In this document: one piece after another, positions 24,190-52,024 of the stretch
How the letters are laid out: every line of letters begins with the position of its first letter
Position numbering within the stretch: the first letter of the stretch is position 1
From: an uncultured Candidatus Saccharibacteria bacterium
GTDB lineage: Bacteria; Patescibacteriota; UBA1384; DTJR01
Reading direction: 5' to 3'
Length of the DNA stretch: 64,000 nucleotides
Assembly: GCA_964487045.1 (NCBI GenBank)
Contig: CAZAOT010000001.1
Coordinates: forward strand, 4,875 to 68,874
Position numbers and translations under genes: made by a program
Notes under the pieces: model-generated
What the model was told of the DNA's origin: nothing
The model's input: the letters and a program-made list of their open reading frames with translations, nothing else
Database searches by the model: none

Positions 24190-24218
24190 TTGACTTGAAG
24201 CCGATATTATGTTATTTT
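24190..24218 (+). promoter_or_regulatory. candidate sigma70-type promoter TTGACT-N17-TATTTT
   Basis: read directly upstream of G+C-rich gene; weak -10. Confidence 0.3.
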
Positions 24219-24268
24219 TTTGTGTCAGGTTTTTTGCAGCCTGCATCACAGCAAGGGAGGGTTGTACC

Positions 24269-27868: not shown

Positions 27869-29638
27869 ATGCAAGAGCTGGTGCTGTTTGTTGCTGTAAT
27901 CGGCTATCTGATCGGGTCGATACCGATCGGCTATCTGATTGGCAAGAAGTTCGGCGTGAATCTTCTCGAAGAAGGGTCTAAGGCGATCGGCCGGACCAAC
28001 CTCGAGCGGGTTCTCGCGCCGATCATCGGCGCCAAGCGCGCCAAGCTCTGGGGTTATATCGGCGAGGCAGGCGACCAGCTCAAGGGACTCGTCCCAATTC
28101 TGATTGGTATGCTTCTGCTTCGTCTTGACCCCATCTCGCTCGCTGTCCTCGCTACTTCGCTCATTCTCGGCCACTGCTACTCTGCGTTTCTTTTCTTCAG
28201 GGGTGGCAAGGGAGTCGCGACGACGATGGGCATCGTGCTTGCTCTTTGCTGGTACATCGCTGTGCCATGCTACGTGTTCTGGTTTGCCGCCAAGAAAGCG
28301 CTCGAGACCAAGACGCAGGAGGCAACCGCACTCGCTTCGATTCGCGGAGGTCTTCTGGTTGGTGTTCTGGGAGTCATGGTCACGCACGACCTGGCCATGC
28401 AGATCTTCTTCGCCTTTGCTGCGCTTCACATCGTTTTTGCTCACCGCGAGAACCTGAAGCGCTACAGGCAGGAACAGCTGCAGAAGAAGCTTGAGAAAGC
28501 AAGCTTCCCGGACGATATGCCGACCGGTGTATTCATCACCGATGCGGCTACGAACAATCCTGAGACGGTCAAGCGGCTTCTGATGCAAAAGAAGAAGTTC
28601 GCCTGGCTCGTCAACCTCTTTCCGGCCCAGTTCGTCTGCGACGTGATTCTCCCCATCATCCCGATGAAGTACCTGAAGATGGGCGAGGTCATCCTCGAGA
28701 ATGATCTTGGGGCCAAGGTCAGAGTTGTGACCTGGGGCTACCCGGACATCCCAAGACGAATGATGGAGAACCCGGGCCGTACGATCTCGAGGCTACTTGA
28801 TCTTTGTTCATACGTCGAGTCGCTTGGTGCAGACGACATCTGCCTTGGCGCCAACACAGCCAGTGTCGGCGACAAGGGAGCAACGCTTCAGCAGTTTGCC
28901 CAGTCGATCACGAACGGCAATCGCCTAACCTGCGTCTATGCGGTTAAGGCTGCTCTCAAAGTGCTAGACACAATGCTAATCCCTCGAGGAACCGCTGTAG
29001 CAACTGTGGTTGGCAGTGGCGGCTCAGTAGGAGATGGCGTGTGTCAGCTTCTGCTCAAGGCCGGTATCGGACGCCTGTATTTGGTTGGAAGCACTCTTGG
29101 TAAACAGGCTGGTCAGGCAACTGAGCTCTCGAGGCGTTTTGGGGTTCCGGTTGAAGAACTGGGACTAATGGACGCCCTCTCGCGAAGTCATCTGGCCATC
29201 TTTGCCTCTAGTGGTACGGCCAGAGAGAACGCGCACAAGATCAATCCCGAGGCGCTTCCAGCAGGCTTGATTGTCGTTGACATGGAACGCCCGCGCGAGA
29301 TCTCAAAGATGCTTGCCGAGTATGTGTGGCTTCTGCCGAACGATGGTGGCATGGTTGCTATCGAAGGAACGGGCAAGGCTGGGACTGGCTTGCCTGAAGG
29401 CGTTTACTTCCCTTGTTTCAGCGAACTAGCCTTGCGCCTCTTCCGCGGAATCAGGACGAAGTGGTGCTATCCAGCTACTCTCGAGGAATTGAGGGAGGTT
29501 TGGGAAGCGGCTGAGGAGGAAGGCTTCTCTCTAGCTGGTCTGCGTCTTAATGAGCAGCCAGTTGAAGATCATGAGCTTGCTTTCCGTATCGAGCAAGCAG
29601 AGATGGCAAAAGCCTACAAACCCAGGAGGGTGACATGA
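27869..29638 (+). CDS. PlsY-like glycerol-3-phosphate acyltransferase domain fused to a C-terminal Rossmann-fold (GxGxxG) domain
   Basis: N-terminal 200 aa align by eye with PlsY (YLIGSIP, LGHCYSAFLFFRGGKGVATTMG, FAHRENLKRY) but GSGNxGATN motif is GSKAIGRTN; C-terminal about 390 aa contains VVGSGGSVGDGVCQLLLKAGIGRLYLVGST dinucleotide-binding motif; G+C-rich. Confidence 0.55.
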   Translation: MQELVLFVAVIGYLIGSIPIGYLIGKKFGVNLLEEGSKAIGRTNLERVLAPIIGAKRAKLWGYIGEAGDQLKGLVPILIGMLLLRLDPISLAVLATSLILGHCYSAFLFFRGGKGVATTMGIVLALCWYIAVPCYVFWFAAKKALETKTQEATALASIRGGLLVGVLGVMVTHDLAMQIFFAFAALHIVFAHRENLKRYRQEQLQKKLEKASFPDDMPTGVFITDAATNNPETVKRLLMQKKKFAWLVNLFPAQFVCDVILPIIPMKYLKMGEVILENDLGAKVRVVTWGYPDIPRRMMENPGRTISRLLDLCSYVESLGADDICLGANTASVGDKGATLQQFAQSITNGNRLTCVYAVKAALKVLDTMLIPRGTAVATVVGSGGSVGDGVCQLLLKAGIGRLYLVGSTLGKQAGQATELSRRFGVPVEELGLMDALSRSHLAIFASSGTARENAHKINPEALPAGLIVVDMERPREISKMLAEYVWLLPNDGGMVAIEGTGKAGTGLPEGVYFPCFSELALRLFRGIRTKWCYPATLEELREVWEAAEEEGFSLAGLRLNEQPVEDHELAFRIEQAEMAKAYKPRRVT

Positions 29639-30804
29639 ACAGTAGGGTGGCCGTGCTTGGAGCGGGCCAGTTTGGCTTTGCTCTTGCTTGCCGATTGGCT
29701 CAAGGCGGGATAAAGACGGTTCTGTGGGGCCGTAGTCCGCATATTCTCAGCGGTCCGCGGGCAGTCTCACAGCGGTTCAGTGGTGGATCGCCGCCCCTTG
29801 GGCTTCAAGTTACTGGCGGATCAGGTCTTCCCAGCCTGGATGACTTTGACCTGGTCTTTGTCGCCACTGATTCTTCTGGACTCGCTGAGCTAGTCCCGAT
29901 GATCGCCCAGAGTGATATTGGCGATACGCCGGTTCTTCTTGTCCAGAAGGGTCTTGTGAATGGTGTCTCTCCCGTGGAATTCGCTAGCGCCGCCGGACTT
30001 AACGCCGGTTCGTTTACCGGCGCGGCCTTCGCAAGTGACATCTATCTCGGCTCTGAGGCGATGATGATCGTCGCAGCCGAGGACGTTACCCTCTGCATTA
30101 CAGTGATGGAGCTGCTTAAGCCCCTTAAGTTCTGGATAACTGCATGTAGTGATCCAGACGCGATCTGCGCTGCCAACGTAGCGCGAACGATCACCTCGAT
30201 CGAGATGGGTATTGTCAGCGGCTTCGCGGACTACTTGCAGCGCCAATCAAAGTATGCACTGGTGCCGCATAGGTCGCCTGACTTTACTCCAACCGAGATC
30301 GCGGCGGCCACCGCTAGCATCCAGTACGAGTGGCGGGTTGTCTCAGCGATGCTTAGTCCGGTGATTAACTCCTTGCTCTATCCAGAAGTAGTCTCGGATG
30401 ATGTTTCGATCGTGCGCAACATCAATCGCGAGCGCATTCTCAGGGTCCTTTCCGCTGACAACTACCTCTGCAGCGGGATGATACTCGACCGTAACGACAG
30501 GGGAGGAGATTCTCGGGTGACTCTGGGTCTTCCTCTCGCCACACCGGTCTCGCGCAACTGGCGGTTTGGCTATGCGCTTGGCTGCTGGCGTTATGTCCCG
30601 GATGCCATAAGGGCGGTTGCTGACCTTGGAGTGATCCAGGGGCAGCAGAACGCTCTTGATCTATACAAGCGGTTCGGTGCGAGCGCCCCGCCGTTTCTCA
30701 CCTCCCTTGGCCGAATCTTGACTGAAGTGTCAAAGGTCGAGGAGGAGATCCAGGTCATTCGCGATCGTCGCGATGCCTGGTATGAAAAGTACGCTTCTAG
30801 CTGA
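29635..30804 (+). CDS. divergent NAD(P)H-dependent glycerol-3-phosphate dehydrogenase (GpsA)-like protein
   Basis: VAVLGAGQFGFALACRLAQGGIKTVLWGRS matches GpsA N-terminus; region equivalent to GGAVKNVIAIGAG reads AANVARTITSIEMG (Lys to Arg); overlapping stop/start with upstream gene. Confidence 0.5.
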   Translation: MNSRVAVLGAGQFGFALACRLAQGGIKTVLWGRSPHILSGPRAVSQRFSGGSPPLGLQVTGGSGLPSLDDFDLVFVATDSSGLAELVPMIAQSDIGDTPVLLVQKGLVNGVSPVEFASAAGLNAGSFTGAAFASDIYLGSEAMMIVAAEDVTLCITVMELLKPLKFWITACSDPDAICAANVARTITSIEMGIVSGFADYLQRQSKYALVPHRSPDFTPTEIAAATASIQYEWRVVSAMLSPVINSLLYPEVVSDDVSIVRNINRERILRVLSADNYLCSGMILDRNDRGGDSRVTLGLPLATPVSRNWRFGYALGCWRYVPDAIRAVADLGVIQGQQNALDLYKRFGASAPPFLTSLGRILTEVSKVEEEIQVIRDRRDAWYEKYASS

Positions 30805-30823
30805 GCTATGCTCGGTCTTACAC

Positions 30824-30861
30824 GGGCTCCCGGAAGTTTTCCGGGAGCCCGTTTCTTTTTT
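30824..30861 (+). terminator. rho-independent terminator
   Basis: perfect 10-bp stem GGGCTCCCGG/CCGGGAGCCC, 7-nt loop, GTTTCTTTTTT tail. Confidence 0.75.
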
Positions 30862-31734: not shown

Positions 31735-32277
31735 CTATTTTATTTCAATTGATTCGATCTTATCACCGATTTTGATTTTCTTAACGATGTCCATGCCTGA
31801 ACTGACCTTGCCAAAATATGTATACTGCTTGTTTAGGAATGAGCAGTCGACTGTGCAGATGAAGAATTGGTCGGCATTTGAAACTTTAATATCGCCGGCC
31901 CTGGCAATACCTACCGCTCCCTCTGAAAAATTGCTGTCAGATAACTCAGTTGCTTGATCGCCACCGCCGGTGCCGTCTCCCTTTGGGTCACCTCCTTGTA
32001 CGACCCAATCCTCGACGCGGTGAAAAGTTCTCCCAGCATACTCACCGGCAGTAACTTTCTTGATGAAATTATCGACTGTGTTTGGTGCCGACTTAGCGTC
32101 GAGGTCGATTGTAAAACTTCCAGCATTTGTTTTGATAGTAGCCTTCTTATTAATCACATTATTCACGATATTTTCCTTCGATGTCTGCTTGCTAGATGCG
32201 CAAGCGGTTAATGTTAGAGCGAGCCCAAAAACAAAAAAAGCGATAAATATTTTTCTCATAAAGACAATGTAAAACAA
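31735..32277 (-). CDS. cyclophilin-type peptidyl-prolyl cis-trans isomerase, lipoprotein
   Basis: lipobox LTLTAC, cyclophilin core FHRVEDWVVQGGDP...GGGDQ. Confidence 0.7.
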   Translation of the reverse strand: MFYIVFMRKIFIAFFVFGLALTLTACASSKQTSKENIVNNVINKKATIKTNAGSFTIDLDAKSAPNTVDNFIKKVTAGEYAGRTFHRVEDWVVQGGDPKGDGTGGGDQATELSDSNFSEGAVGIARAGDIKVSNADQFFICTVDCSFLNKQYTYFGKVSSGMDIVKKIKIGDKIESIEIK

Positions 32278-34722: not shown

Positions 34723-35628
34723 CTATTTTTTAAGCTCTAGGTAGACCAAAGTCCAGTATGATGAGAAATAAGCCTGTACGATGCCAGCTAGAAAAAACAT
34801 CACGGCCAAAAATGGAATTCCTAGAATTATCGAATAAACGACGGTACTGATTAGGCCGAGCGTCGTATAAACCCCGAAACCAATTAGGGAAAGTATCAGA
34901 CCGATGACTCCGATAACTATCAAAATCCCAAGTCCAGCACCCATATTTAGAACCATTTGTAGAAGCATCGCTAAAATCGAATTGCCAAGATTAGCTTTAA
35001 TTTTTCTAAGAGATCTTACAAAAGCCTCGTAAGTACCTGCCTTTTCCAGAACAATTTCCCTCTTGGCATATTCGACTGTTGGAACTAATCCAAAGCAGAT
35101 TAAAATCATTCCAAGAATGCCGACGAATACTAGGATTCCACCCAAAATGTAAATCGGTAGCGCCTGAACAAAGACCATAAGTAGAATTGGCATGGCCATA
35201 AATACTAACATCCAACCCATGACCAAGGCGCAGACTAACAGTCCGAGAAGAAATAATTTTCCAGCGTAACCCTTGCTAGATGCCCACGCCTGTGAAAAAT
35301 TCTTGAAGTGAGTTTTATTTTCAATTTTATCTACTGAGTTTATAAGCCCTGCTTCTGCTCGAAGAGATAAATAAATAAAAACAATTGCCAAGACAAACAT
35401 GATAAGGGTAGCGATAATTATCGCTGATTCGTGCGTTGAGACCCAATTTGAAATATTATCAGCAATAGGACCAACCTGATCTGATTCATTCATGTTATAT
35501 CCAGAGGACATGCTGTTTGGCATACTGCTTGATCCACCTGCCAAGGAAGCAAGTACTCCAAGACCCCATAAATATCGGTAATGTTTTATATTCTGGAAAG
35601 ATTTCGAAATAATTTTGCCAAAGTCCAT
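34723..35628 (-). CDS. hypothetical polytopic membrane protein
   Basis: 301 aa, about 6 TM helices, no motif. Confidence 0.45.
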   Translation of the reverse strand: MDFGKIISKSFQNIKHYRYLWGLGVLASLAGGSSSMPNSMSSGYNMNESDQVGPIADNISNWVSTHESAIIIATLIMFVLAIVFIYLSLRAEAGLINSVDKIENKTHFKNFSQAWASSKGYAGKLFLLGLLVCALVMGWMLVFMAMPILLMVFVQALPIYILGGILVFVGILGMILICFGLVPTVEYAKREIVLEKAGTYEAFVRSLRKIKANLGNSILAMLLQMVLNMGAGLGILIVIGVIGLILSLIGFGVYTTLGLISTVVYSIILGIPFLAVMFFLAGIVQAYFSSYWTLVYLELKK

Positions 35629-35700: not shown

Positions 35701-36828
35701 ATGAAGCGAGATACTAAGATATTTATTACTCTGCTAATTTTTTTCCTAGCAGTTTTGGCTTTCTTCTGTAAGAAGGAGTATGAAAATCTTGATTATTTTT
35801 TGCCGCTTGCTAACTCGATCTTGCATGGAAAATTCAGTGTTAATTGCAACCTAGCGCTAAACGAACTCGTAAACATCAAAAATAGATGCTTTGTAGTTTA
35901 TCCGCCGGCGCCGGCGATCGCACTACTACCGTTTGCGCTTTTATTTGGCAGCAAATTAAGCCAAGTATACCCTGGAATCATCTATGCCTCGCTCGCCGGC
36001 GCCTTGTTCTATCTGGTTCTAAGACGTCTCACAAAAGAACCAGAAGCAATAGCGCTTAGTTTATTTCTGATGTTTGGCACTAATTTCTTCATGATTTCGC
36101 TGATTGGAAGGTCATGGTATTTTGCCCATGTCACCGGAATATTTTTCATGGTTATTTCAGTACTCTTTGCCCTCAAAAAAAAGCCATACTTAGCTGGAAT
36201 TTTCTTAGGCTTAGCTGGCATGAGCCGTTTGCCGATGCTCTTTGCTTTTCCAGCAGTCTTATATCTTCTCAAACCTACCAAAAAAGATTATATAAAGTTT
36301 TTTATTCCAGTTAGCGCAGTTGTTCTTATTTTCTTAGCCTATAATTACTATCGTTTCGGCTCGATATTTCAAACTGGCTACTCCCTGATTCCGGGAGTGC
36401 TTGATGAAGCTTGGTACAAGCAGGGGATTATGTCGCTTAGCTATATACCTAGAAATCTCAAAGCGATGTTCCTGCAAATGCCAGAATATATATCCGTTTT
36501 CCCTTGGTTTGTTCCCAAGACTTATGCCATGGCCTTGTGGCTAACTTCGCCGGCCCTTCTGCTTCTTGTTTTTGGCCTTAAGGACAAGCGCTCCTTAGTA
36601 ATGATGCTGAGCTTCGCTTTAATAATTTTCACCGATTTAATGCACGGCGCGGTCGGATTTAGTCAGTTTGGTTACAGATTTGCGCTTGATGGAATGATTT
36701 TTCTTATTATCGCGATGATTCCAGCCCTTGAGTCACAGCCGATACTATCACTAAGCTTAATCTTTGTAAGTGTAGTGATAAACTTTTACGCTGTTTTGGA
36801 ATATGCGCTTGGTTACTTTCATCCTTAA
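35701..36828 (+). CDS. multi-pass membrane protein, possible GT-C-type glycosyltransferase (DUF2029/GT87-like)
   Basis: 375 aa, 10 or more TM helices; assignment by topology only. Confidence 0.3.
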   Translation: MKRDTKIFITLLIFFLAVLAFFCKKEYENLDYFLPLANSILHGKFSVNCNLALNELVNIKNRCFVVYPPAPAIALLPFALLFGSKLSQVYPGIIYASLAGALFYLVLRRLTKEPEAIALSLFLMFGTNFFMISLIGRSWYFAHVTGIFFMVISVLFALKKKPYLAGIFLGLAGMSRLPMLFAFPAVLYLLKPTKKDYIKFFIPVSAVVLIFLAYNYYRFGSIFQTGYSLIPGVLDEAWYKQGIMSLSYIPRNLKAMFLQMPEYISVFPWFVPKTYAMALWLTSPALLLLVFGLKDKRSLVMMLSFALIIFTDLMHGAVGFSQFGYRFALDGMIFLIIAMIPALESQPILSLSLIFVSVVINFYAVLEYALGYFHP

Positions 36829-37230
36829 ATATCGATTCTGCTATAATTAATCTGTACTAATTTTTCTGCAAAACATTTACTTCTGCGTGAAGTATCTCAA
36901 AAGAGGGGGCACCCCGATTAAATTTACATATTTAACGGGTCGAGGTGACGTACTTTTTTCGCCTAAAATCTGATAGGTAATCGTTCAGTCTCGCCTGGCA
37001 CCCTATTGCATAGCGCGATAGAACTATCACAAGTCTAACAACCTCTTTTTGCTCGCTTTGTTAAAGTCGAAATCATTTCTTTGGTTTTTACAAAGTAGAG
37101 CTAAGCGAAACCAGTCGCTATTATTAGTTTTTTGTTCGAAGGAGGGGAAAATTCGGCAATTGTTTTGTTAGTGATTTTTTTCATACTAATGAGTGGGCGG
37201 TAAGATTTTAAAAAATATTTAAACAAAAGA

Positions 37231-37264
37231 GGCGGGAGCGAAGGGGTTGCCCTTCGCTCCCGCC
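37231..37264 (-). terminator. rho-independent terminator for minus-strand small-protein operon
   Basis: 14-bp stem GGCGGGAGCGAAGG/CCTTCGCTCCCGCC; on minus strand followed by TCTTTTGTTTAAATATTTTTT. Confidence 0.65.
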
Positions 37265-37270
37265 GGGATG

Positions 37271-37423
37271 CTACGCGCTTTTCGCGCGCTTGATGTGGTA
37301 GGCGAGTGAGATGATGGCGCACACCCCACAGAAGAATGGGATTGCGCGTATGTGCTCACCTCCATAGGCCTCAATAAGGCCGCCAGTGACCAGCGATAGA
37401 ATCGAATAGCCCAGAAGACTCAT
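37271..37423 (-). CDS. small hydrophobic protein (50 aa), G+C-rich cassette
   Basis: ATG 37423 preceded by AGGAGTA; translation MSLLGYSILSLVTGGLIEAYGGEHIRAIPFFCGVCAIISLAYHIKRAKSA done by hand. Confidence 0.45.
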   Translation of the reverse strand: MSLLGYSILSLVTGGLIEAYGGEHIRAIPFFCGVCAIISLAYHIKRAKSA

Positions 37424-37433
37424 CGTGATACTC

Positions 37434-37709
37434 CTATTCTAATCCCAGAGTTGCTCCGCCGGCAAAGCGGCGTTCTGTTTCAGCGAGGAGAGCCTTTCCC
37501 TCGATCGTCACCATGTTGTCCGACATGATTCCTTGCTTGTCTGGACAAATGATGAGTTCTGCTTCGCCTGTCAGTCTGACTTCAGCGGAACTCGTTTCCG
37601 CTATCTCGACAAAAAGAGGTGGCTCGTGTGAGCCAGACTTATTCTTCAGACAGACCCAGATACGCGAGCCGACAGGTTGGCGCCTGAGGTCGAAGAAGTT
37701 TAGCTTCAC
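37434..37709 (-). CDS. small soluble protein (91 aa), G+C-rich cassette
   Basis: GTG 37709 preceded by GAGGAGGTAG; GTGA overlap with upstream gene stop; MKLNFFDLRRQ...GATLGLE. Confidence 0.4.
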   Translation of the reverse strand: MKLNFFDLRRQPVGSRIWVCLKNKSGSHEPPLFVEIAETSSAEVRLTGEAELIICPDKQGIMSDNMVTIEGKALLAETERRFAGGATLGLE

Positions 37710-37927
37710 GCTACCTCCTCGCTTGACGCTTCGGCTGTTTCTTCTCTTCTTCCTCTGAACGAAGAGATGATGGCAAGGCCGCCACAGAAGATGCAATTGC
37801 CGCTTGCGAGGAGAGTCACTGAGACTGGCACGTCCTGCTTGATGTAGAGAATACCGAGCAGGACAAGTCCCATGGCGATTAGTCCGAGACCGCTAAGGAT
37901 CAGGCTTATATCCGGTTTGTATTTCAT
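37706..37927 (-). CDS. small membrane protein (73 aa), G+C-rich cassette
   Basis: ATG 37927 preceded by AAAGGGAAAG; two TM helices (LILSGLGLIAMGLVLLGILYI, CIFCGGLAIISSF). Confidence 0.45.
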   Translation of the reverse strand: MKYKPDISLILSGLGLIAMGLVLLGILYIKQDVPVSVTLLASGNCIFCGGLAIISSFRGRREETAEASSEEVA

Positions 37928-37942
37928 TGGTGCTTTCCCTTT

Positions 37943-38077
37943 CTAGCGCGTGAATGCGAACTGGGGAAGGTGCTGCCAGGCGAGAGCAATGGCAGCACAG
38001 AAGATGATCACTAGTCCTACCAAGGCGAGGTAGGCCGGCAGATTGTGCCTTTCTGATTCTAGGAATCTTAGTCGCAT
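37943..38077 (-). CDS. small membrane protein (44 aa), G+C-rich cassette
   Basis: ATG 38077 preceded by GGGAGAGGGAT; MRLRFLESERHNLPAYLALVGLVIIFCAAIALAWQHLPQFAFTR. Confidence 0.4.
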   Translation of the reverse strand: MRLRFLESERHNLPAYLALVGLVIIFCAAIALAWQHLPQFAFTR

Positions 38078-38244
38078 GATCCCTCTCCCTATGTCAAGTT
38101 TCTTGTGTTTTACAGAATTAGGATATTTTACATCAAAAAACCCACCTTATCAAGGGTGGGCGATCATTATTTGATCAGATCATGATATATTAAATGTCTT
38201 AGTCTTGAAAACTTTGCGCATAAGAAGTAGTATTACCCTGATAT

Positions 38245-38321
38245 GCACCCGTAGCTCAGCTGGATAGAGCGTTGGCTTGCGGAGCCAAAGGTCGTAGGTT
38301 CGAATCCTATCGGGTGTACCA
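38245..38321 (+). tRNA. tRNA-Arg, anticodon read as GCG
   Basis: 77-nt cloverleaf: acceptor GCACCCG/CGGGTGT, D-arm GCTCAGCTGGATAGAGC, anticodon stem TTGGC/GCCAA with loop UUGCGGA, T-arm GTAGGTTCGAATCCTAT, CCA encoded; close to E. coli tRNA-Arg by eye. Confidence 0.8.
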
Positions 38322-38322
38322 G
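38301..38322 (+). repeat. direct repeat DR-L (tRNA-Arg 3' end CGAATCCTATCGGGTGTACCAG)
   Basis: exact 22-nt match to 41187-41208. Confidence 0.85.
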
Positions 38323-39776
38323 TACGGAAATGTCAAATTTTGGGAGTTTGCGCCGCCTGCGGCGGCGACTAAATTGTAGGGAATTTTTGCTTCAAAATGC
38401 CACTTTCGATTCTGTAAGAAATGGTTCGAGCCGATATTTTTGAGAAATGTTAGAATTTCCGAATAATCTTCGGAATTTTTTAGTTTATCTGCTTTGGCAA
38501 GCGATAAAATGAACTCTTTGGCCGGTTCGAGCCAAGACAATCCTTTTTGTTCAAAATCTGTAATTTTTTCGTTAATCTCCAGCTTTTCGCTAAGTAGCTT
38601 TTGTTTTCGCAAAGTATATTCTTCGGTTGTAATGACTTCGCTCAGATATACATCGAGTAATTTTTCAAGCTGTTTCGTAATTTCTTCGAGCTTTACTTTG
38701 AGATTTTGAACAGAAGTTTTAGCCAACGTTCTTGCTTGAGTTTCTTGTTTCTCTAATTCAAACAAAACTTTTTTGGTATCTTGGCTCGACAAAGAAACTT
38801 TTTGTAAATACCCATTTATTTGCTCAACGAGTTTTTCTTCTCGCAGATAATGCTTTTCTTGGCAACCACTTTTCTTTTTTGTGCATCGGTAATAGTTGTG
38901 GCCTTTTTGTATTTCGGCAGTAATCGCACAGCCGCAACTTTTACATTTCATAAGCCCAAGAAAAGCAAAATGATGTTTTTCCTTTTTGCGAGGCTTGCCA
39001 CGATCTTTCAATACTTCTTGGCATTTATCAAAAAGTTTCTTTGGGATTATCGGTTTGTGTTTTCCTTCGTATATTTCGCCGTTATATTTCATTAGCCCAA
39101 TGTAGAAAATATTTTGTAGAATTGAATTGATATTGCTGATAGAAATCCTCTTGTTGAGATTCCCGAATAACATGTCATCTTCCGCCCAATTTGCGAGAGA
39201 ATTAAAGGTATATTTGCCGGTTGAATAGAGCTCAAAAAGCTTTCTGACTTTTCTAACCTTTATTTCGTCGACATCAATATTTCTTGTTCTCGGATTATTT
39301 ATATAGCCAACCGGCGCCCAGCCGGGCCAAACTCCATTTCGTATTTTTTGCCTTAACCCTCGTTTTACATTCTCTCGCAAATTGTCTACAAAATATTTTG
39401 ATTGACCAAAAGCAATGTTCAACATGAAAATCCCTTGAGGTGTTGGTTCAAACCAGAACGAAGGAAAACACAAGGATTTGATTTTCTGCCGGTCTATCAT
39501 GTGGATTATCTTTCCACCGTCTACACTATTTCTTGCTAACCTGTCAGGGTGCCAACTCAAAATCCCTTCCGCCTTTCCTTTTTCGATCAATTCTAACATT
39601 TCAGCGAACTTCGTTCGACCAGGTTCTTTGGCAGTTTTGGCTTCGCACAGCGAAGCGACAATTTCAAGTTTTTCTTTGGCGGCAAATTCCCGAAGCTCAA
39701 CTAGTTGAGCTTCAATCGAAAGAACTTGTCTGTCATCATCTTCAGTACTTTTGCGAGCGTAAATTATGTAGCGCAT
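38307..39776 (-). CDS. large serine recombinase (resolvase N-terminal domain, zinc ribbon, coiled coil)
   Basis: MRYIIYARKSTEDDDRQVLSIEAQ catalytic-Ser N-terminus, CKSCGC...YYRCTKKKSGC zinc ribbon, C-terminal coiled coil; start ATG 39776 preceded by AAGGAGGAAA; 3' end runs through IR1-L and 15 nt into tRNA-Arg. Confidence 0.8.
   Translation of the reverse strand: MRYIIYARKSTEDDDRQVLSIEAQLVELREFAAKEKLEIVASLCEAKTAKEPGRTKFAEMLELIEKGKAEGILSWHPDRLARNSVDGGKIIHMIDRQKIKSLCFPSFWFEPTPQGIFMLNIAFGQSKYFVDNLRENVKRGLRQKIRNGVWPGWAPVGYINNPRTRNIDVDEIKVRKVRKLFELYSTGKYTFNSLANWAEDDMLFGNLNKRISISNINSILQNIFYIGLMKYNGEIYEGKHKPIIPKKLFDKCQEVLKDRGKPRKKEKHHFAFLGLMKCKSCGCAITAEIQKGHNYYRCTKKKSGCQEKHYLREEKLVEQINGYLQKVSLSSQDTKKVLFELEKQETQARTLAKTSVQNLKVKLEEITKQLEKLLDVYLSEVITTEEYTLRKQKLLSEKLEINEKITDFEQKGLSWLEPAKEFILSLAKADKLKNSEDYSEILTFLKNIGSNHFLQNRKWHFEAKIPYNLVAAAGGANSQNLTFPYWYTR
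38316..38415. repeat. inverted repeat IR1 left copy (about 100 bp)
   Basis: near-perfect reverse complement of 39817-39916 (2 mismatches); begins with GTACCAGTAC overlapping the tRNA 3' end. Confidence 0.85.
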
Positions 39777-39816
39777 TTTCCTCCTTTTAATTTCATAAAA
39801 ATTTTCTTTTACAATC

Positions 39817-39916
39817 ACAGAATCAAAAGTGGCAATTTGAAGCAAAAATTCCCTACAATTTAGTCGCCGCCGCAGGCGGCGCAAACTCCCAAAATTTGAC
39901 ATTTCCGTACTGGTAC
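39817..39916. repeat. inverted repeat IR1 right copy
   Basis: reverse complement of 38316-38415; ends CCGTACTGGTAC. Confidence 0.85.
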
Positions 39917-40004
39917 TCTATCCTGAAAATTGTTCGAACGTATTTTGGCCGCGAAGCGGCCGAGAAAACACCCCCGAAAATTCCCGACTGAAATTCTGAA
40001 CTTT
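39910..40004. repeat. inverted repeat IR2 left copy (about 95 bp)
   Basis: perfect reverse complement of 40970-41064; starts CTGGTACTCTATCC, shares CTGGTAC with the end of IR1-R. Confidence 0.85.
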
Positions 40005-40161
40005 CAAAACTGCCAAAGAATCTGTTTCAAAAATATCGGCTCGAATCCATTAGTTTGTAAAAGAAAATTTTTATTAATTCAATCAGCACTGATTGATTTT
40101 TTATTCTTCTTGGTATATGCTTTTATTCAACAATCGAAAGCAGAAATATTGAGTTTCTCAA

Positions 40162-40184
40162 TTTCCTGCTTTCGAAGCAGGAAA
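40162..40184 (+). promoter_or_regulatory. perfect 10-bp stem / 3-nt loop hairpin in leader of cargo gene
   Basis: TTTCCTGCTT-TCG-AAGCAGGAAA read directly; not followed by a T-run. Confidence 0.35.
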
Positions 40185-40225
40185 ATCTCTGTACAGGCCA
40201 CAAGGCCGTGCAAGGAGTGAGAACA

Positions 40226-40846
40226 TTGTCTAAGGTCAACAGTATCCAGCTCACGTGTCTCAAGCCGAATGACTGTTCCACCCGACTTGCTCTTCCCGAA
40301 GTCACCTACGACTTTCGGGTGTGGGCTATCATCAACGACCTTGAGAAGGCCGTTGAGAAGGCGGGCGGTGCAACGCTCGCAGTCTTCGCGGGTGTTCCGT
40401 GGGAGTACGGGAGCCGCTCGGTCAACTTTCTCAACTATGTGGCCGAGATGGTGGTGAGAACAAACCGCGGCAAAGGGGAATTCATCGGAAGAAGCTATCT
40501 TGCGAGTGGCGGGATGTCACGGCTCGCAAGCTTGATGAAGGACGTTCGGCCAGACGGACAGATCAGAGCTGTGGTCGACCAAATCACGCGAACAATCTGG
40601 TCCGACCAGCCGATCCCGCGCGGTTTGCCCGACAATCTCTGGTACGAGCAGACGGACTACGAGTCGTTCTGCATCAAGTCGGGCAAAGGTGACATCATCA
40701 GGTGGGTTCCCGAGAATCAAGTTCAGGAGGAGCGGACGATGGGATTTCTCCGCTTGGAGTTTGAGGAGCCCTCTGTCAAGCACTTCTGTCAGCTAATTCA
40801 ACAGCTACATCGCTTTCCGGGTGTGGCCGAGTTCGCCAACGGCTAG
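40226..40846 (+). CDS. hypothetical protein, G+C-rich cargo of IR2 cassette
   Basis: AGGAG 8 nt before in-frame TTG 40226 (MSKVNSIQLTCLKP...); no recognisable domain; composition contrasts with A+T-rich recombinase gene. Confidence 0.5.
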   Translation: MSKVNSIQLTCLKPNDCSTRLALPEVTYDFRVWAIINDLEKAVEKAGGATLAVFAGVPWEYGSRSVNFLNYVAEMVVRTNRGKGEFIGRSYLASGGMSRLASLMKDVRPDGQIRAVVDQITRTIWSDQPIPRGLPDNLWYEQTDYESFCIKSGKGDIIRWVPENQVQEERTMGFLRLEFEEPSVKHFCQLIQQLHRFPGVAEFANG

Positions 40847-40869
40847 CTGTAGACCGGAGTACAAGCAAC

Positions 40870-40899
40870 AGGCAGACCAGCAGTGGCCTGCCTTTTTTC
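40870..40899 (+). terminator. possible rho-independent terminator
   Basis: AGGCAGACC...GGCCTGCCT imperfect stem then TTTTTTCTTG. Confidence 0.4.
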
Positions 40900-40969
40900 T
40901 TGCCGCCAAAGGAGAAATCTGCTAAGATTTCTCTAGTGAGCGAAGCTCACTAAAAAACTTGAAATTGTC

Positions 40970-41064
40970 AAAGTTCAGAATTTCAGTCGGGAATTTTCGG
41001 GGGTGTTTTCTCGGCCGCTTCGCGGCCAAAATACGTTCGAACAATTTTCAGGATAGAGTACCAG
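40970..41064. repeat. inverted repeat IR2 right copy
   Basis: reverse complement of 39910-40004; ends GGATAGAGTACCAG. Confidence 0.85.
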
Positions 41065-41186
41065 AATAAAATTTGCCCCTCGCGGGCTAATTTTATTATT
41101 TGGGAACCATAGGATTCGAAGGCCGCAGCGAGCGTAGGCGAGCGAGGCGGGGTCGATGAATTTGCCAGCAGGCAAATATCAGTGAC

Positions 41187-41208
41187 CGAATCCTATCGGG
41201 TGTACCAG
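41187..41208 (+). repeat. direct repeat DR-R (copy of tRNA-Arg 3' end)
   Basis: exact 22-nt match to 38301-38322, followed by hairpin ATATGAC...GTCATAT and T8 that looks like the native tRNA terminator. Confidence 0.85.
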
Positions 41209-41981: not shown

Positions 41982-42305
41982 TTAGATATTAAACTTGTCT
42001 GCGTACTGTCCAATGATAGGTAACGGCTTTTCTTGTCCTCCAACTGCATTGATTATACCCATAATCCAGAGGATGAAGACGACTAAACCTCCGACGATGG
42101 AGATGATCTGTCCGATCACCGGTATCACATTAATAATGCTTACCGCTATCGAAGCGATGATCAAAACCAAACCTTGCTTGATGTGAAATTTTACAAACGC
42201 ATCGTTCTTCGCATCAGTTAACAAGGGAACCACGATCAAGATACCTAGATAACACAAAACAGCCATTCCAATATTTTTACTTCCTTCGGCCATATTATCA
42301 CCCAC
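41982..42305 (-). CDS. small membrane protein (DUF4870-like)
   Basis: 107 aa, FVKFHIKQGLVL motif between two TM helices. Confidence 0.45.
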   Translation of the reverse strand: MGDNMAEGSKNIGMAVLCYLGILIVVPLLTDAKNDAFVKFHIKQGLVLIIASIAVSIINVIPVIGQIISIVGGLVVFILWIMGIINAVGGQEKPLPIIGQYADKFNI

Positions 42306-43496: not shown

Positions 43497-43586
<90 letters not shown>

Positions 43587-43677: not shown

Positions 43678-43706
43678 TTGATTGTATGGGTATATTCTAG
43701 TATTAT
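43678..43706 (+). promoter_or_regulatory. sigma70-type promoter TTGATT-N17-TATTAT
   Basis: -35 43678-43683, -10 43701-43706, 17-nt spacer; same -35 hexamer as promoter at 27767. Confidence 0.5.
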
Positions 43707-43750
43707 GACGTGACGAGAATTCGCGTTCATTACAGAGGAGAGAGTGCCAT

Positions 43751-44179
43751 ATGTGTAAGAAACTGATATTTGCTAGTACGCTGGCACCGAAACTCTACTG
43801 CTTGTGCACACCGAGTGAGGAGTTGCTGGAGGTCTTGCTTGAGCGTGCCAAGGACGATGAGTGTCGCGCCGAGCCACTTATGGTGGCCGAACAGGAGATC
43901 GAGTTCGGGCCAGCCAACTATCTTTATGACGAGGCCCGCATGCGCGTCTGTGAGGCTAGTGCAGGCATGGCTACGGTCATGATCCAGGTCGGTAGTCATG
44001 CTGATGGAATTCGATCAGTGCTTGTGCCTGTTGGCGAGAAGGAGGGTGATGACGAAGCCCTGCCTGAAGGGGCTTTGATGCCAGGTATCGGTTGCCCGAT
44101 GGAATGTCTGCTGGGCCTGGGGCTGTTTTGTCTCGTGATCAAAGGCGGCATTTGCGCCGTCCATTATCTGCTCGGCTAA
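43751..44179 (+). CDS. hypothetical cysteine-rich protein with hydrophobic C-terminus, G+C-rich cassette
   Basis: GAGGAGAG SD before ATG; 142 aa with CxC, C-rich C-terminal segment GIGCPMECLLGLGLFCLVIKGGICAV. Confidence 0.45.
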   Translation: MCKKLIFASTLAPKLYCLCTPSEELLEVLLERAKDDECRAEPLMVAEQEIEFGPANYLYDEARMRVCEASAGMATVMIQVGSHADGIRSVLVPVGEKEGDDEALPEGALMPGIGCPMECLLGLGLFCLVIKGGICAVHYLLG

Positions 44180-44200
44180 TGGCCGGGAGGGGAGTACAGC

Positions 44201-44512
44201 ATGTCTTTGTTTGGCAAAAAGGGAGAGCCGAAGCCGCCTAAGGTGAGGAAGGAGCGCAAGCCGCGCGCTCCGATCACCAAGGAGCGAGTCTTTGAAGGGT
44301 TGTTGGCTTTTGGCCGCAACCTGTTGCTGGTAGTGACCGTCGTAGGCATCTTGGCGCTCTCGGCGCTCGTCTACGTCCTGTTCCAGAAGATCGGCGGCGG
44401 CAGTAGCGACCCAGCAACGAAGAACCTGATTCTCGTCGCGACTGCGATGACGGCCGGAGGCGGCTTTTTCACGCTCTGGCTCGGCCGCACCTGGGGCATC
44501 ATCCCGTACTAG
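44201..44512 (+). CDS. small membrane protein with lysine-rich N-terminus, G+C-rich cassette
   Basis: 103 aa; KPPKVRKERKPRAP then two TM helices. Confidence 0.45.
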   Translation: MSLFGKKGEPKPPKVRKERKPRAPITKERVFEGLLAFGRNLLLVVTVVGILALSALVYVLFQKIGGGSSDPATKNLILVATAMTAGGGFFTLWLGRTWGIIPY

Positions 44513-44535
44513 GGCTGATGCCTGCGAGCATCTTT

Positions 44536-44576
44536 GGCGGTTTGTCCGGTCACCCGGACAAACCGCCTTCTTTTTT
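44536..44576 (+). terminator. rho-independent terminator
   Basis: perfect 14-bp stem GGCGGTTTGTCCGG/CCGGACAAACCGCC, loop TCAC, TTCTTTTTT tail. Confidence 0.8.
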
Positions 44577-44644: not shown

Positions 44645-45286
44645 TTATCCTCCAATTTCAGTCTCGAAACCAAATTGTTTGGCTTTGGCGAACTCCTTCT
44701 TGGCGGTTGTATTGTCTTTTAGCTCTTGATAGGTGAGGGATAGAAGATAATGGGCTTGGCCGCAAAGAGGATCGATTTTAAGAGCTTGCTCGAAGGCCGT
44801 TTTAGCCTCATCAAATTTGTTAGCAACCAGAAGAACATGGCCTTGATTGATATATCCATCGCGCCACGAAGCATCTTTTTCAACTGCCAATCTTGCCGCT
44901 GCTTCGGCTCGTTCTACGTCTTTATTTTTCAAAAACTGCTCAGAAAGGGCGACAAATCCTAGGGCATCAGTAGCCTGCGAAGCAACTTCTGCTTTAATTT
45001 TAGTAATATGCTCTTCATAGGTTTGTTTTTGCGCTACCATTGCCGCTTCGTTTGATTTGGCCGAGTATTCATAAACTGACTTAATACCAATATAACTCAT
45101 CACGATCAAGGCAAAGACTCCAAGAACCAAACCGATGCCCTTAAAGGGCACCTTTTTCAAATTTATCGAAGTTATTAGGTCAATTGGCGAGTATTTAAAT
45201 GAAGAAAAAGAGGTAGCTGATTTTCGGTTGTGATGTAATTCGGCTTTTAATTGAGCCGAAAGATGATACGACTTTAGATTATTCAT
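44645..45286 (-). CDS. TPR-repeat protein with N-terminal TM anchor
   Basis: TPR-like helices (AEAAARLAVEKD..., KTAFEQALKIDPLCGQAHYLLSLTYQELKD); start taken at ATG 45286 preceded by AAGGTGGG. Confidence 0.55.
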   Translation of the reverse strand: MNNLKSYHLSAQLKAELHHNRKSATSFSSFKYSPIDLITSINLKKVPFKGIGLVLGVFALIVMSYIGIKSVYEYSAKSNEAAMVAQKQTYEEHITKIKAEVASQATDALGFVALSEQFLKNKDVERAEAAARLAVEKDASWRDGYINQGHVLLVANKFDEAKTAFEQALKIDPLCGQAHYLLSLTYQELKDNTTAKKEFAKAKQFGFETEIGG

Positions 45287-45321
45287 CCCCACCTTGTTAA
45301 GAATAAAAATTAAAAATTCGA

Positions 45322-47427
45322 TCAGAGAGCTGGCCAGGAAGCGTCGATGAGCATTTTGCTCTCTCGTTGCTCCTCGGGTAGCTCTTGCCAACATGCTTCA
45401 GTTACAAACGGCATGTATGGGTGAAGCAATTTCAAGCTTGTTTTCAATATTTTTGTAAGCTTTAAGAGAGACGTCTTTTTTTCTCGTTCATCGCCGCCAT
45501 AAAGACGTTTCTTTTCCTGCTCTATAATCTTATCAGCAAACTCATGCCAAATATAAGCGTACAAATGTTCGCCTGCTTGTGAAAATTTAAACTCATCGAT
45601 CAGTTTTGTAACTTCTGAAGTAACCTTATCCAGATTCTCTATATCTTTTTTATCTTGATCTGAAAAATTAGATTCCTCAGTATCAATTTCAATATTTTCC
45701 AGATTTGTTACTACAAATCTGGCAATATTCCAAATCTTGTTTGAAAAATTACGATACCCTCTGATTTTGCTTTCACCAAGGGCTATATCCTGACCTGCGG
45801 TAGTTCCGACAATCAAGGAATATCTCAGGGCGTCGGCGCCGTATTTTTCGATAATATCTATTGGATCAATCACGTTGCCAAGAGATTTGGACATCTTGCG
45901 ATTCTTTTCGTCCCTTACGAGGCCATGCAGGTAAACAGTCTCAAAAGGAGCTTTGCCTGTCAGCTCTAATCCCATCATGATCATCCTGGCGACCCAGAAA
46001 AACAAGATGTCATAACCTGTTTCCATGACTGTTGTTGGGTAGAAGTTCTTGTAATCTTCAGCATCTTTGTCTGGCCAGCCAAGAGTGGAGAATGGCCAAA
46101 GTCCACTTGAGAACCAAGTATCGAGTACATCTTCTTCTTGCACCCAGCCGTCACCCTCGGGAGCTTTTTTGCCAACATAAATTTCTTCTCCCTTATACCA
46201 AACCGGAATTTGGTGGCCCCACCAGAGTTGGCGCGAGATACACCAGTCGCGTATATTATCCATCCAATGGAAGTAAACTTTTTCAAAACGCTTTGGCATA
46301 ATTTTGATCTCGCCTGACTCCACCGTTTTTTTGGCTTTCTCGGTGAGTGGTTTCATCTTTACGAACCATTGCTTTGATGGAATTGGTTCAATTTGACCAC
46401 CGCAGCGGTAACAAGTGGCTATATTATGTTCGTAATTTTCTTCAATATGATCGATTAGACCCATTTTCTGCATATCTTCGACAATTGCTTCGCGAGCCTC
46501 CTTGGTCTTCATGCCGGTATATTTACCGGTGTTCTCCATCATGCGGCCGTTTTCGTCTATCACTTGTTTAAGTGGAATATCGTTGCGCTGAGCAATTTCA
46601 AAATCAACCAAGGAGTGAGCAGGGGTAACCTTGATCGCACCTGTGCCGAATTTTGGGTCGACGGCGTTATCAGCGACGACAACAATTTCAAAATCTCCCA
46701 GTACTCCCGGAATCATAAATTTCTTGCCAACCATATCCTTATATCTCTTATCGGTTGGGTGAACGGCGACTGCAGTGTCGCCAAGCTTTGTCTCTGGTCT
46801 AGCGGTAGCTAAGGTAAATGGACCATATTTAATCCAGTAGAATTTGCCAACTTCTGGTTTGTGCTCAACTTCATCATCGGCAATTGCGGTGTGGCAGCGG
46901 GGGCACCAGTTAACTGTGCGCAGCCCCTGATAAATAAGTCCCTTATCGTATAAATTTACAAATGCTTCTTTGACTGCTTCGGATAGTCCCTCGTCTAGGG
47001 TAAAGCGTTCTCTTGTCCAGTCACAGGAAGCACCAAGTTTTCTAATTTGAGAGGTGATAGTATTGCCGTATTCTTCTTTCCATTGCCAAACTCGCTCCAC
47101 AAACTTTTCACGTCCTAAGTCGTGTCGCCTCAAACCTTCTTTGGAAAGTTGCTTTTCGACAACATTTTGAGTGGCGATGCCAGCGTGGTCAGTTCCGGGA
47201 AGCCAAAGAGTTGGTTCTCCCCTCATGCGATGGTAGCGAGCCATAATGTCCTCGAGCGTTACGTACATACCATGGCCGATATGAAGTTTGCCGGTCACGT
47301 TTGGCGGAGGCATCGAAATAACAAAAGGTTTTTTACCTTCTTCTATTTTTGGAGTGAAGGATCCGCTATCTTCCCATTTTTTATATATTTCGTCTTCAAA
47401 AACTTTGTGGTTGTAAGCCTTATCCAT
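45322..47427 (-). CDS. valS: valyl-tRNA synthetase, short form
   Basis: PPPNVTGKLHIGHG (class I HIGH, ValRS-type PPPNVTG) and KMSKS; about 700 aa, lacks long C-terminal coiled coil. Confidence 0.75.
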   Translation of the reverse strand: MDKAYNHKVFEDEIYKKWEDSGSFTPKIEEGKKPFVISMPPPNVTGKLHIGHGMYVTLEDIMARYHRMRGEPTLWLPGTDHAGIATQNVVEKQLSKEGLRRHDLGREKFVERVWQWKEEYGNTITSQIRKLGASCDWTRERFTLDEGLSEAVKEAFVNLYDKGLIYQGLRTVNWCPRCHTAIADDEVEHKPEVGKFYWIKYGPFTLATARPETKLGDTAVAVHPTDKRYKDMVGKKFMIPGVLGDFEIVVVADNAVDPKFGTGAIKVTPAHSLVDFEIAQRNDIPLKQVIDENGRMMENTGKYTGMKTKEAREAIVEDMQKMGLIDHIEENYEHNIATCYRCGGQIEPIPSKQWFVKMKPLTEKAKKTVESGEIKIMPKRFEKVYFHWMDNIRDWCISRQLWWGHQIPVWYKGEEIYVGKKAPEGDGWVQEEDVLDTWFSSGLWPFSTLGWPDKDAEDYKNFYPTTVMETGYDILFFWVARMIMMGLELTGKAPFETVYLHGLVRDEKNRKMSKSLGNVIDPIDIIEKYGADALRYSLIVGTTAGQDIALGESKIRGYRNFSNKIWNIARFVVTNLENIEIDTEESNFSDQDKKDIENLDKVTSEVTKLIDEFKFSQAGEHLYAYIWHEFADKIIEQEKKRLYGGDEREKKTSLLKLTKILKTSLKLLHPYMPFVTEACWQELPEEQRESKMLIDASWPAL

Positions 47428-47495
47428 AGGTTTAATATTAGCGCAATTCAAGGAGAAAACAAGATGAAACTGTGAAAGCTGGAAGCAATTAGTGA

Positions 47496-47524
47496 TTGAC
47501 TAATTATTACTCTTGAGCTATATT
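47496..47524 (+). promoter_or_regulatory. sigma70-type promoter TTGACT-N17-TATATT
   Basis: -35 47496-47501, -10 47519-47524, 17-nt spacer; followed by GCCCC-TTAT-GGGGC leader hairpin. Confidence 0.5.
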
Positions 47525-47575
47525 TTCAGGATTGAGTGCCCCTTATGGGGCCCAAAGGACATTGAGGTGATGGCG

Positions 47576-48746: not shown

Positions 48747-48778
48747 GGCCGGAGGTTCGCCTCCGGCCTGTTTTTTTT
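48747..48778 (+). terminator. rho-independent terminator
   Basis: GGCCGGAGG-TTCG-CCTCCGGCC then TGTTTTTTTT. Confidence 0.75.
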
Positions 48779-51079: not shown

Positions 51080-51244
51080 TTTTATAGATCCTTCGACAAG
51101 CTCAGGATTAAAATGCCTTTTTAATTTTCTATTAAAACATTTTCAATTTAACAAAATTAAGGGGTTACCACAACTATTTGCTTGAAAATCGTCTGAAGGG
51201 TGTTAATTTTAATATAGATTCGGGGACCGAAGGGTAGGTGATAG

Positions 51245-51538
51245 ATGAAACTAGCATTTGTCCGCACTGAGAAGGGCTGGCAGCGAGGTTACTTCAGCGG
51301 AAGGATGCTGGTCGTAGGAGACAGCAAGCCAATCTCTGAAGTAGAGGCCAGAAGGCAGCTCAGCTTGCCAGGGGAAACGATCGTCAAGGTGATCGTTTCA
51401 GACCAAGTCTTTCGCGCCTATGACGTACTGATGAGACGGGACGATATGAAACCGGAGCAGGTCCAAATGGGTCTGCTGCCAAAGCCTGACAAACCCCGAA
51501 GAGGGTGCTTGATGTGGTTTCTTCCGCGCCATCATTGA
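51245..51538 (+). CDS. hypothetical protein, G+C-rich
   Basis: 97 aa; SD GGGTAGGTGA before ATG; no motif. Confidence 0.35.
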   Translation: MKLAFVRTEKGWQRGYFSGRMLVVGDSKPISEVEARRQLSLPGETIVKVIVSDQVFRAYDVLMRRDDMKPEQVQMGLLPKPDKPRRGCLMWFLPRHH

Positions 51539-51553
51539 TCCCGAATCTTACAA

Positions 51554-51592
51554 GGGACGCTCCGCCTTGTGCGGTACGTCCCTTTTCCTTTT
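51554..51592. terminator. possible bidirectional terminator between convergent G+C-rich genes
   Basis: GGGACG...CGTCCC stem followed by TTTTCCTTTT; A-run on the other side. Confidence 0.35.
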
Positions 51593-51648
51593 AAAAGTAA
51601 AACGCCCCCCGGACCGTTGGCTCGGGGCATGAGGTTGGCTGGCCGGTG

Positions 51649-51924: not shown

Positions 51925-52024
51925 CCTTTCTGTTCTGTTGCCAGATTGTCAAAACGCGATCTGGATATACTAACTCAAGGACAGCTATATTGCAAGCGTA
52001 TGGTTTCGATAATATAGTCGGTTT

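Follow-up and report, generated by a model that had tools for sequence, protein, structure and literature searches.

A tight G+C-rich operon of four small proteins, three of them predicted to be membrane-embedded, in an uncultured Candidatus Saccharibacteria genome

In a stretch of 64,000 nucleotides (nt) from an uncultured Candidatus Saccharibacteria bacterium (contig CAZAOT010000001.1; hereafter the window) we analyzed a short G+C-rich cassette on the minus strand that encodes four small proteins, P1 to P4, of 44, 73, 91 and 50 residues. The reading that we favour, with confidence a little above even, is that the cassette encodes a complex of membrane mini-proteins that is restricted to its lineage and built around a coupled P2-P3 core, in which P2 would tether or regulate P3 and P1 and P4 would be paralogous accessories. 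For any specific physiological role of such a complex our confidence is far below that for its architecture. The anatomy of the operon, the coding nature and conservation of P3, the conserved position of a hairpin protein next to P3 and the compositional distinctness of the cassette were observed directly. The initial annotation of this DNA had proposed a tight operon of small genes for three mostly hydrophobic helical proteins and a soluble one, and this proposal is borne out in that P3 is under purifying selection and the order of hairpin protein and P3 recurs in a relative.

The unit, read along the minus strand (window 38153..37231), consists of a candidate promoter, four open reading frames (ORFs), each preceded by a Shine-Dalgarno (SD) sequence as first described, and a terminator, with a coding density of 97% for the cassette. 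P1 lies at 37943..38077, P2 at 37706..37927, P3, which starts with GTG, at 37434..37709 and P4 at 37271..37423. The SD strings GGGAGAGGGAT, AAAGGGAAAG, GAGGAGGTAG and AGGAGTA are located directly 5' of the starts of P1 to P4, respectively, at sensible spacing (GGGAG 7 nt before the ATG of P1 and AGGAG 7 nt before the ATG of P4), and the calculated energies of their duplexes with the anti-SD sequence are -9.0, -5.3, -13.1 and -6.8 kcal/mol. An energy of -6 kcal/mol or lower, as found for three of the four ORFs, is reached by 9% of the ATG/GTG sites of the window and by 12% of those in the cassette, and the binomial estimate for three strong sites among four is approximately 0.006. The stop codon of P2 and the start codon of P3 overlap as GTGA, as had already been noticed. 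Given that the SD site of P3 is contained in the final codons of P2, P2 and P3 are probably made together. A programmed frameshift fusion of P2 and P3 was considered and rejected, as there is no slippery site and the frame relationship differs in the relative. The 3' end of the operon is marked by an intrinsic terminator (37264..37231, minus strand; feature span 37221..37264) whose stem, first given as 14 bp, is a perfect 15 bp with a 4-nt loop and a T-tail (GGCGGGAGCGAAGGG-CAAC-CCCTTCGCTCCCGCC, then TCTTTTGTTT).

Upstream of P1, a candidate sigma-70-type promoter (TTGATA-17 nt-TAAAAT; 38125..38153, minus strand) matches the consensus at 10 of 12 positions, approximately 45 nt 5' of the P1 start codon. 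It lies within the AT-rich spacer between the tRNA-Arg gene and the cassette and was identified by its consensus match alone. The terminator scan further revealed, between tRNA-Arg and P1, a hairpin with a 7-bp stem followed by a T-run (TTTTTTGATG; 38140..38161, minus strand), which overlaps the -35 element of the candidate promoter. This hairpin would probably halt transcription that leaves the recombinase gene and runs antisense across the tRNA gene.

The description of the cassette as G+C-rich was accurate: its G+C content is 0.52-0.55 and its G+C content at third codon positions (GC3) 0.56-0.66, as compared to 0.36-0.44 and 0.33-0.51, respectively, for the native genes of the window, including the neighbours of the operon. 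Independent Logan contigs (L001, 36197-38272; L090, 34838-37262) cross the junctions between low and high G+C, indicating that the mosaic at the micro-operon is not an assembly artefact. Contig ends at 37243-37262 were dismissed as strain breakpoints, as they fall in the palindromic terminator, which breaks k-mer assemblies. In a codon model built from those G+C-rich genes in the window that Pfam verifies, a test that is biased towards open frames, the annotated frame ranked first of six for each of P1, P2, P3 and P4. When the cassette was compared with Rfam, the terminator hairpin alone gave matches, all below threshold (gathering and E ≤ 1). A structured non-coding RNA in the G+C-rich patch thus found no support in Rfam, and an integron attC site at the terminator was discarded on account of the perfect hairpin followed by a T-run and of an integron integrase not being found nearby.

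By its sequence conservation, P3 is a real, conserved coding gene. When 1.84 billion representative proteins were scanned exhaustively with HMMER, one true homologue emerged, a protein of 116 residues (P0003) with 42% identity over residues 2-89 of P3 (E = 3.5e-10), which is the only homologue of P3 among approximately 15 billion proteins. Word-indexed protein searches with P3, P2 and a P3 profile returned the queries themselves and P0003, nothing else; a third HMMER match, to a repeat-rich eukaryote-like protein, was disregarded because it aligns over 25 residues only. The alignment of P3 with P0003 opens at residue 1, confirming the GTG start, and contains two conserved blocks (FFDLRRQPxGSxIWV and AETxRxFxGGxTLG). 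Identity at codon positions 1, 2 and 3 is 0.57, 0.60 and 0.38, with third positions saturated, and 25 of the 39 identical residues are encoded by different codons. P3 is thus under purifying selection as a protein. It is soluble and acidic (pI 5.4), is predicted to be rich in beta-structure and has no predicted signal peptide. A PilZ-like or Tat-signal reading of its N-terminus was rejected, as its motifs are at odds with either and Pfam gave no match.

The P3 homologue resides in a relative whose gene order was read from the gene table of a 92.7-kb contig (ENA ERZ1426829), with adjoining DNA taken from short contigs (L085-L091). This order comprises tRNA-synt_1b, a class I tRNA synthetase (tRNA-synt_1), TPR and, further along, DUF4870/MamF, GT2 and a gene for 176 residues, followed by genes for 160, 79, 229, 68 and 116 residues, the last being the P3 homologue, then by a GerE protein with two helix-turn-helix (HTH) domains and, after a gene for 377 residues on the opposite strand, by DUF7544 and PPIase. 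In the window, tRNA-synt_1b (49955-51079), the class I tRNA synthetase (45322-47451), TPR (44645-45394), DUF4870 (41982-42305), DUF7544 (34723-35628) and PPIase (31735-32277) are syntenic with the relative; read along the minus strand, DUF4870 is followed by a recombinase island, tRNA-Arg and P1 to P4. A gene for a 375-residue GT-C-like protein (a glycosyltransferase; 35701-36828) lies between P4 and DUF7544. Since the two gene orders agree, the P3 gene is placed in a conserved chromosomal neighbourhood.

In the relative, the P3 homologue starts 3 nt after the gene for a 68-residue two-helix membrane protein, and its SD sequence (GGAGG) lies inside the last codons of that gene. Directly 3' of the P3 homologue follows a terminator that resembles the one of the operon (GGCGGAAGC...GCTTCCGCC TCTTTTTT), leaving no counterpart of P4. 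The co-occurrence of the four genes in other genomes, which had been suggested as a check, was accordingly found in part: a P3 homologue stands behind a two-helix protein in one relative, which has no counterparts of P1 and P4. This layout indicates that the conserved unit is a two-helix mini membrane protein with a coupled P3-like soluble protein, while P1 and P4, as far as these comparisons tell, are specific to the genome of the window. Faint similarities were seen at the level of helices between P1 and the relative's 68-residue protein (p = 0.008), and between P2 and its 79-residue membrane protein (shuffle p approximately 0.001, uncorrected for eight tests). A tblastn search of the window with the 229-residue, 68-residue, 79-residue and GerE proteins gave the P3 match only. 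The relative's genes at the locus, including the flanking GerE gene, have 49-53% G+C.

No further relatives were found in the JGI metagenome, viral or GTDB-representative collections, and a scan of genome contigs with the neighbouring 375-residue protein gave no match. The genomes nearest by class I tRNA synthetase (best 57% identity, Candidatus Berkelbacteria) encode no protein of the P1-P4 locus. Within the relative, the assemblies (L085 versus L086, L087, L088, L089 and L091) agree up to position 1703 of L085, inside the GerE/LuxR-type gene, and L085 diverges beyond it (1704-1830), so that it encodes a truncated HTH protein of 53 residues instead of the two-HTH form of 165 residues on the 92.7-kb contig. 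This difference in the regulator is strain-level variation.

P1, P2 and P4, assigned from their ORFs and hydropathy, are the three mostly hydrophobic helical products of the initial annotation, with grand averages of hydropathy (GRAVY) of 0.69-0.86 and one, two and one to two predicted helices, respectively. The proposed check by transmembrane and signal prediction agreed with this assignment, the transmembrane helices of all three being clean and having positive-inside flanks. P1 has a basic N-terminus followed by a single strong transmembrane helix (residues ~15-34) with one Cys. P2 is a two-helix membrane hairpin with a CxxC pair (C45, C48) in the middle of helix 2 and a charged, net acidic C-terminal tail (FRGRREETAEASSEEVA). 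In P4, helix 1 is weak and helix 2 strong, with a CxxC pair (C32, C35) in mid-helix, and the C-terminus is basic. The Cys-containing helices of P1, P2 and P4 carry the motifs IIFCAAIAL, CIFCGGLAIIS and FFCGVCAIIS, which conform to the pattern [I/F]FC[G/A]x[L/C/I]AI, and FCG..AIIS is common to P2 and P4. At the DNA level, repeats are shared between P2 and P4 (22 of 28 nt identical) and between P1 and P2 (17 of 21 nt identical).

These Cys residues raise the question of a membrane module for thiol or metal handling, in which the CxxC pairs of P2 and P4 would bind or pass on a soft metal or exchange disulfides and P3 would be the soluble partner. The position of both pairs in the middle of the second helix, the single Cys in a similar motif in P1 and in the relative's 68-residue protein, and the general resemblance to MerE/MerF/MerT with MerP (proteins of one or two helices with intrahelical paired Cys, and an adjacent soluble protein of ~90 residues) are in line with such a module. 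It is nevertheless very improbable in our view: Pfam gave no match to MerE, MerF, MerT, MerP or a metal-binding family at E ≤ 1; no metal regulator, reductase, ATPase or mer gene, including merR and merA, is present near the operon; P3 has neither a signal peptide nor a conserved CxxC (the MerP-like GMTCxxC), and its own Cys residues are not conserved in P0003; and the Cys pair is missing from the relative's 68-residue protein.

The shape of P2 similarly recalls class II holins and pinholins, with its 73 residues, two helices, short loop, charged C-terminal tail and coupled downstream gene, and a phage lysis or holin module had been among the first suggestions for the locus. The small size, helices and charged tail of P2 are as expected of a holin, though these features are generic and not diagnostic. 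A bacteriocin-like locus could be read from P4, which by inspection has GG at residues 14-15 and 21-22 and hydrophobic residues at -4, -7, -12 and -15 of the first GG, a stretch that might be taken for a double-glycine leader. Against either version, PHROGs and Pfam gave no match, and approximately 40 ORFs of the window scanned against Pfam included no endolysin, spanin, C39-peptidase ABC (ATP-binding cassette) exporter or phage structural gene. Likewise, no match came from blastn against phage and plasmid collections, nor from P3 and its profile when viral contigs and JGI metagenomes were scanned. The tail of P2 is net acidic, and the supposed leader of P4 is uncharged, with none of the acidic residues that are usual in such leaders, and looks like a transmembrane helix. 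Since there is no lysin and no phage context and the locus is part of a syntenic chromosomal backbone in the relative, phage lysis is disfavoured, and we consider a phage-derived or bacteriocin-like origin exceedingly improbable.

The model that we favour remains that of a membrane mini-protein complex. P2, a hairpin of ~70 residues, and P3, a soluble, acidic, beta-rich protein of ~90 residues, would form a translationally coupled pair, with P3 most likely attached to P2 at the cytoplasmic side of the membrane. P1 and P4 would be extra mini membrane proteins that serve as paralogous subunits or modulators of the complex. That the operon has a role at the envelope or membrane is a guess drawn solely from the neighbouring genes, which are envelope-related in both genomes (the GT-C-like glycosyltransferase and the DUF7544 and DUF4870 membrane proteins, and GT2 in the relative).

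Several results weigh against this model. The P3 family has two members, so that its conservation rests on a single comparison. AlphaFold2 gave unusable models of P3, whether for P3 alone or for the two-sequence alignment (predicted local distance difference test, pLDDT, 47.6 and 49.4), and with pLDDT at 48-49 neither the fold of P3 nor its interaction with P2 has model support; a Foldseek search of the PDB with this poor model gave a best E no better than 0.75 and was treated as no evidence. P1, P2 and P4 had no significant sequence homologue in any search; homology between P2 and the relative's 68-residue protein was undetectable at the sequence level, and paralogy among P1, P2 and P4 is weak at the protein level (shuffle p = 0.045-0.11). 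Same-strand ORF coverage shows a marginal excess over dinucleotide shuffles (p approximately 0.05, conservative count). P1 is absent from the 15-billion-protein collection and is predicted by no gene-calling pipeline. Moreover, P1 and P2 share a frame, which is also that of P4, and only a TAG plus five codons (FTR*KGKAPMKY, 37928-37945) stand between them; P1 may be what is left of the N-terminal part of a formerly longer (three-helix) P1-P2 ORF broken by this TAG.

Some of these observations would fit equally if P3 were the sole functional gene and P1, P2 and P4 were chance ORFs or remnants of a larger membrane-protein operon, like the genes for 160, 79, 229 and 68 residues of the relative. 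Besides the missing homologues, the marginal ORF coverage and the single TAG, such a reading could draw on the NCBI record of the source contig, which annotates P3 only, and on the relative, which has larger membrane proteins upstream of its P3 homologue and nothing after it. We regard it as unlikely, given the well-placed SD sites and clean transmembrane helices of P1, P2 and P4, the top rank of their annotated frames in the codon model, the dense packing with a stop/start overlap, and the two-helix protein conserved by position 5' of the P3 homologue. In addition, P2 and P4, together with P3, were independently called in Logan assemblies from four sequencing runs. Genes this small had been expected to escape annotation; P1 was indeed never called, but P3 is present in the NCBI record, and P2, P3 and P4 are present in the Logan assemblies. 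On balance P2 and P4 are probable genes, and P1 is a plausible one, with the weakest case of the four.

Pfam, PHROGs, NCBIfam and PADLOC gave no significant match for P1 to P4 or for the P3 homologue (the best PHROGs E-values, 0.04-0.2, all concerned families of unknown function), a sequence-profile search of the PDB gave noise only (E > 0.4), and a search for similar systems in bacteria of the Candidate Phyla Radiation (CPR) returned nothing specific. The initial annotation had also named toxin/immunity pairs and transporter accessory subunits as typical of such operons; for neither did the family, PADLOC or context searches provide positive support, and no transporter gene or endolysin gene is located beside the operon.

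The toxin/immunity reading can be put more precisely as a module in which one or more hydrophobic mini-proteins harm the membrane and P3 or another mini-protein neutralises them. Toxin-antidote systems commonly couple small hydrophobic peptides tightly to a small soluble protein, and the composition of P1 to P4 fits this general pattern. The cassette is also compositionally foreign, adjoins a tRNA gene and a recombinase island, and is identical between strains with differing flanks. This last point derives from Logan contig L002, from a second strain (run SRR27710321), which shows 0 differences to the window in 895 positions over the cassette (37218..38112, minus strand), 48 differences in 90 positions just past the terminator (window 37128-37217; L002 columns 896-985), and then 7 in 133. 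This pattern, a single comparison, suggests either recent exchange of the cassette, with a recombination boundary, or a hypervariable spacer. We nonetheless judge a toxin-antidote module to be distinctly unlikely: no toxin, antitoxin or defence domain was found for P1 to P4 or the P3 homologue in Pfam, NCBIfam or PADLOC, and the cassette is situated beyond the recombinase island and bears no remnant of its repeat arms. Toxin-antitoxin families are usually patchy and mobile in their distribution. The two members of the P3 family are both in chromosomal synteny, which is weak evidence as the lineage is very thinly sampled.

Across the window, per-gene composition is bimodal, with approximately eight sharply bounded islets of G+C 0.52-0.59 and GC3 0.56-0.70 standing out from the native genes. 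These islets include 24209-25675; 27869-30804, with a PlsY fusion and a GpsA-like gene (core lipid genes); the micro-operon (37231-38100); 40208-40846, with an orphan ORF of 212 residues; a sister cassette at 43751-44512 (to 44567 with its terminator); 47513-48730 (to 48768 with its terminator), with a GT1 gene adjoining a native-G+C GT1 paralogue-like gene; and 51189-52196. The mean SD energy is -6.2 kcal/mol for islet genes versus -2.9 kcal/mol for native ones (p = 0.013), and the four perfect-stem G+C terminators of the 64-kb window (30822-30852, 37264-37231, 44536-44567 and 48747-48768) are all at islet 3' ends. The stronger SD sites and strong terminators point to a separate evolutionary origin of the islets from the low-G+C backbone. 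One possibility is that they derive from higher-G+C relatives through replacement at syntenic sites. At least two islets sit where the relative has genes in matching positions. A further-reaching proposal is that P2-P3 with P1 and P4 represents an undescribed membrane mini-protein complex of a barely sampled CPR-like lineage, carried on self-contained G+C-rich cassettes, each with a promoter, strong SD sites and a GGCGG...CCGCC terminator, which related genomes would exchange at syntenic tRNA-adjacent sites. As one example, the complex could pair an intramembrane-CxxC module with a cytoplasmic beta-protein dedicated to it. This full proposal we hold to be fairly unlikely.

The sister cassette (43678-44567, plus strand) has the same layout as the micro-operon: a promoter-like TTGATT-17-TATTAT, an ORF of 142 residues (43751-44179) with an acidic N-domain and a Cys-rich C-terminal helix, an ORF of 103 residues (44201-44512) with a basic N-terminus and two helices, and a terminator with a 14-bp stem (GGCGGTTTGTCCGG-TCAC-CCGGACAAACCGCC, then TTCTTTTTT) of the GGCGG...CCGCC type. 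It is transcribed divergently from tRNA-Ser(TGA) (43498-43586). Both ORFs were called in Logan assemblies and neither has a Pfam match; the relative has a gene for 103 residues that matches the second ORF in length, position and orientation. In the islet at 51189-52196 (~53-59% G+C), the longest ORFs are mirror-image frames of 134 residues (51569-51973, plus strand; 51548-51952, minus strand). The translations of these frames are rich in Pro, Arg and His and not protein-like, codon-model support is weak, and Rfam gave no match even at E ≤ 1. The islet may hold a decayed gene or a structured RNA that has not been recognised.

On the other side of the tRNA-Arg(GCG) gene (38245-38321), a 2.9-kb island (38301-41208) is located at the 3' end of the tRNA; a second, perfect copy of the last 22 nt of the tRNA (38301-38322) lies in direct orientation at 41187-41208. 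The island contains a gene for a large serine recombinase (39776..38307, minus strand; Resolvase, Recombinase and Zn_ribbon) between 100-nt inverted repeats that are 98% complementary (38316-38415 / 39817-39916), and the G+C-rich orphan ORF of 212 residues between perfect 95-nt inverted repeats (39910-40004 / 40970-41064). A core GTACCAG is common to all four junctions. This arrangement resembles a pair of invertible segments placed back to back, or att sites nested within one another. Viral contigs yielded no related recombinase. A link between the operon and this island was rejected, as arm remnants are missing and the cassette is on the 5' side of the tRNA. Elsewhere in the window, positions 1-24000 hold a cluster for the biosynthesis of nonulosonic acid or surface polysaccharide (NeuB, a DegT aminotransferase, Polysacc_synt_2 and GDP-mannose-dehydratase-like epimerases, a nucleotidyltransferase and a Polysacc_synt flippase), and 52712-63063 contains a pair of very large ORFs (1967 and 1487 residues).

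Small membrane proteins are under-annotated, and the locus provides a clean, well-signalled case in which the reference annotation has missed three genes out of four. CPR bacteria have tiny genomes in which a large share of the genes is without known function. If the P2-P3 complex is real, it would offer a tractable entry to the lineage-specific membrane biology of an uncultured group. The islet pattern bears on how reduced genomes gain or replace genes and may be of broader interest than the operon; together with the recombinase structure, it is arguably the more intriguing part of the window.

Compared with known systems, the cassette resembles horizontally acquired islets in its sharp jump in G+C and GC3, in having its own strong SD sites and terminator, in its position next to a tRNA gene and in its identity between strains with differing flanks. 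In contrast to such islets, it is not bordered by an integrase, direct repeats, insertion scars or remnants of recombinase arms, and the homologue at the syntenic locus of the relative shows that more is involved than a recent insertion at a random position. Small membrane proteins that serve as subunits or regulators are exemplified by CydX, CcoM, KdpF and MgrB. The role of small bacterial membrane proteins as subunits or regulators of larger membrane complexes defines a general class (PMC11429745, PMC10433244). The operon shares with this class proteins of one or two helices and fewer than ~75 residues, encoded in a tight operon with SD sites and easily left unannotated. It differs from it in having no partner complex (oxidase, pump or kinase) in or beside it; its conserved partner is a soluble orphan of 91 residues, and no named small protein is related to it in sequence.

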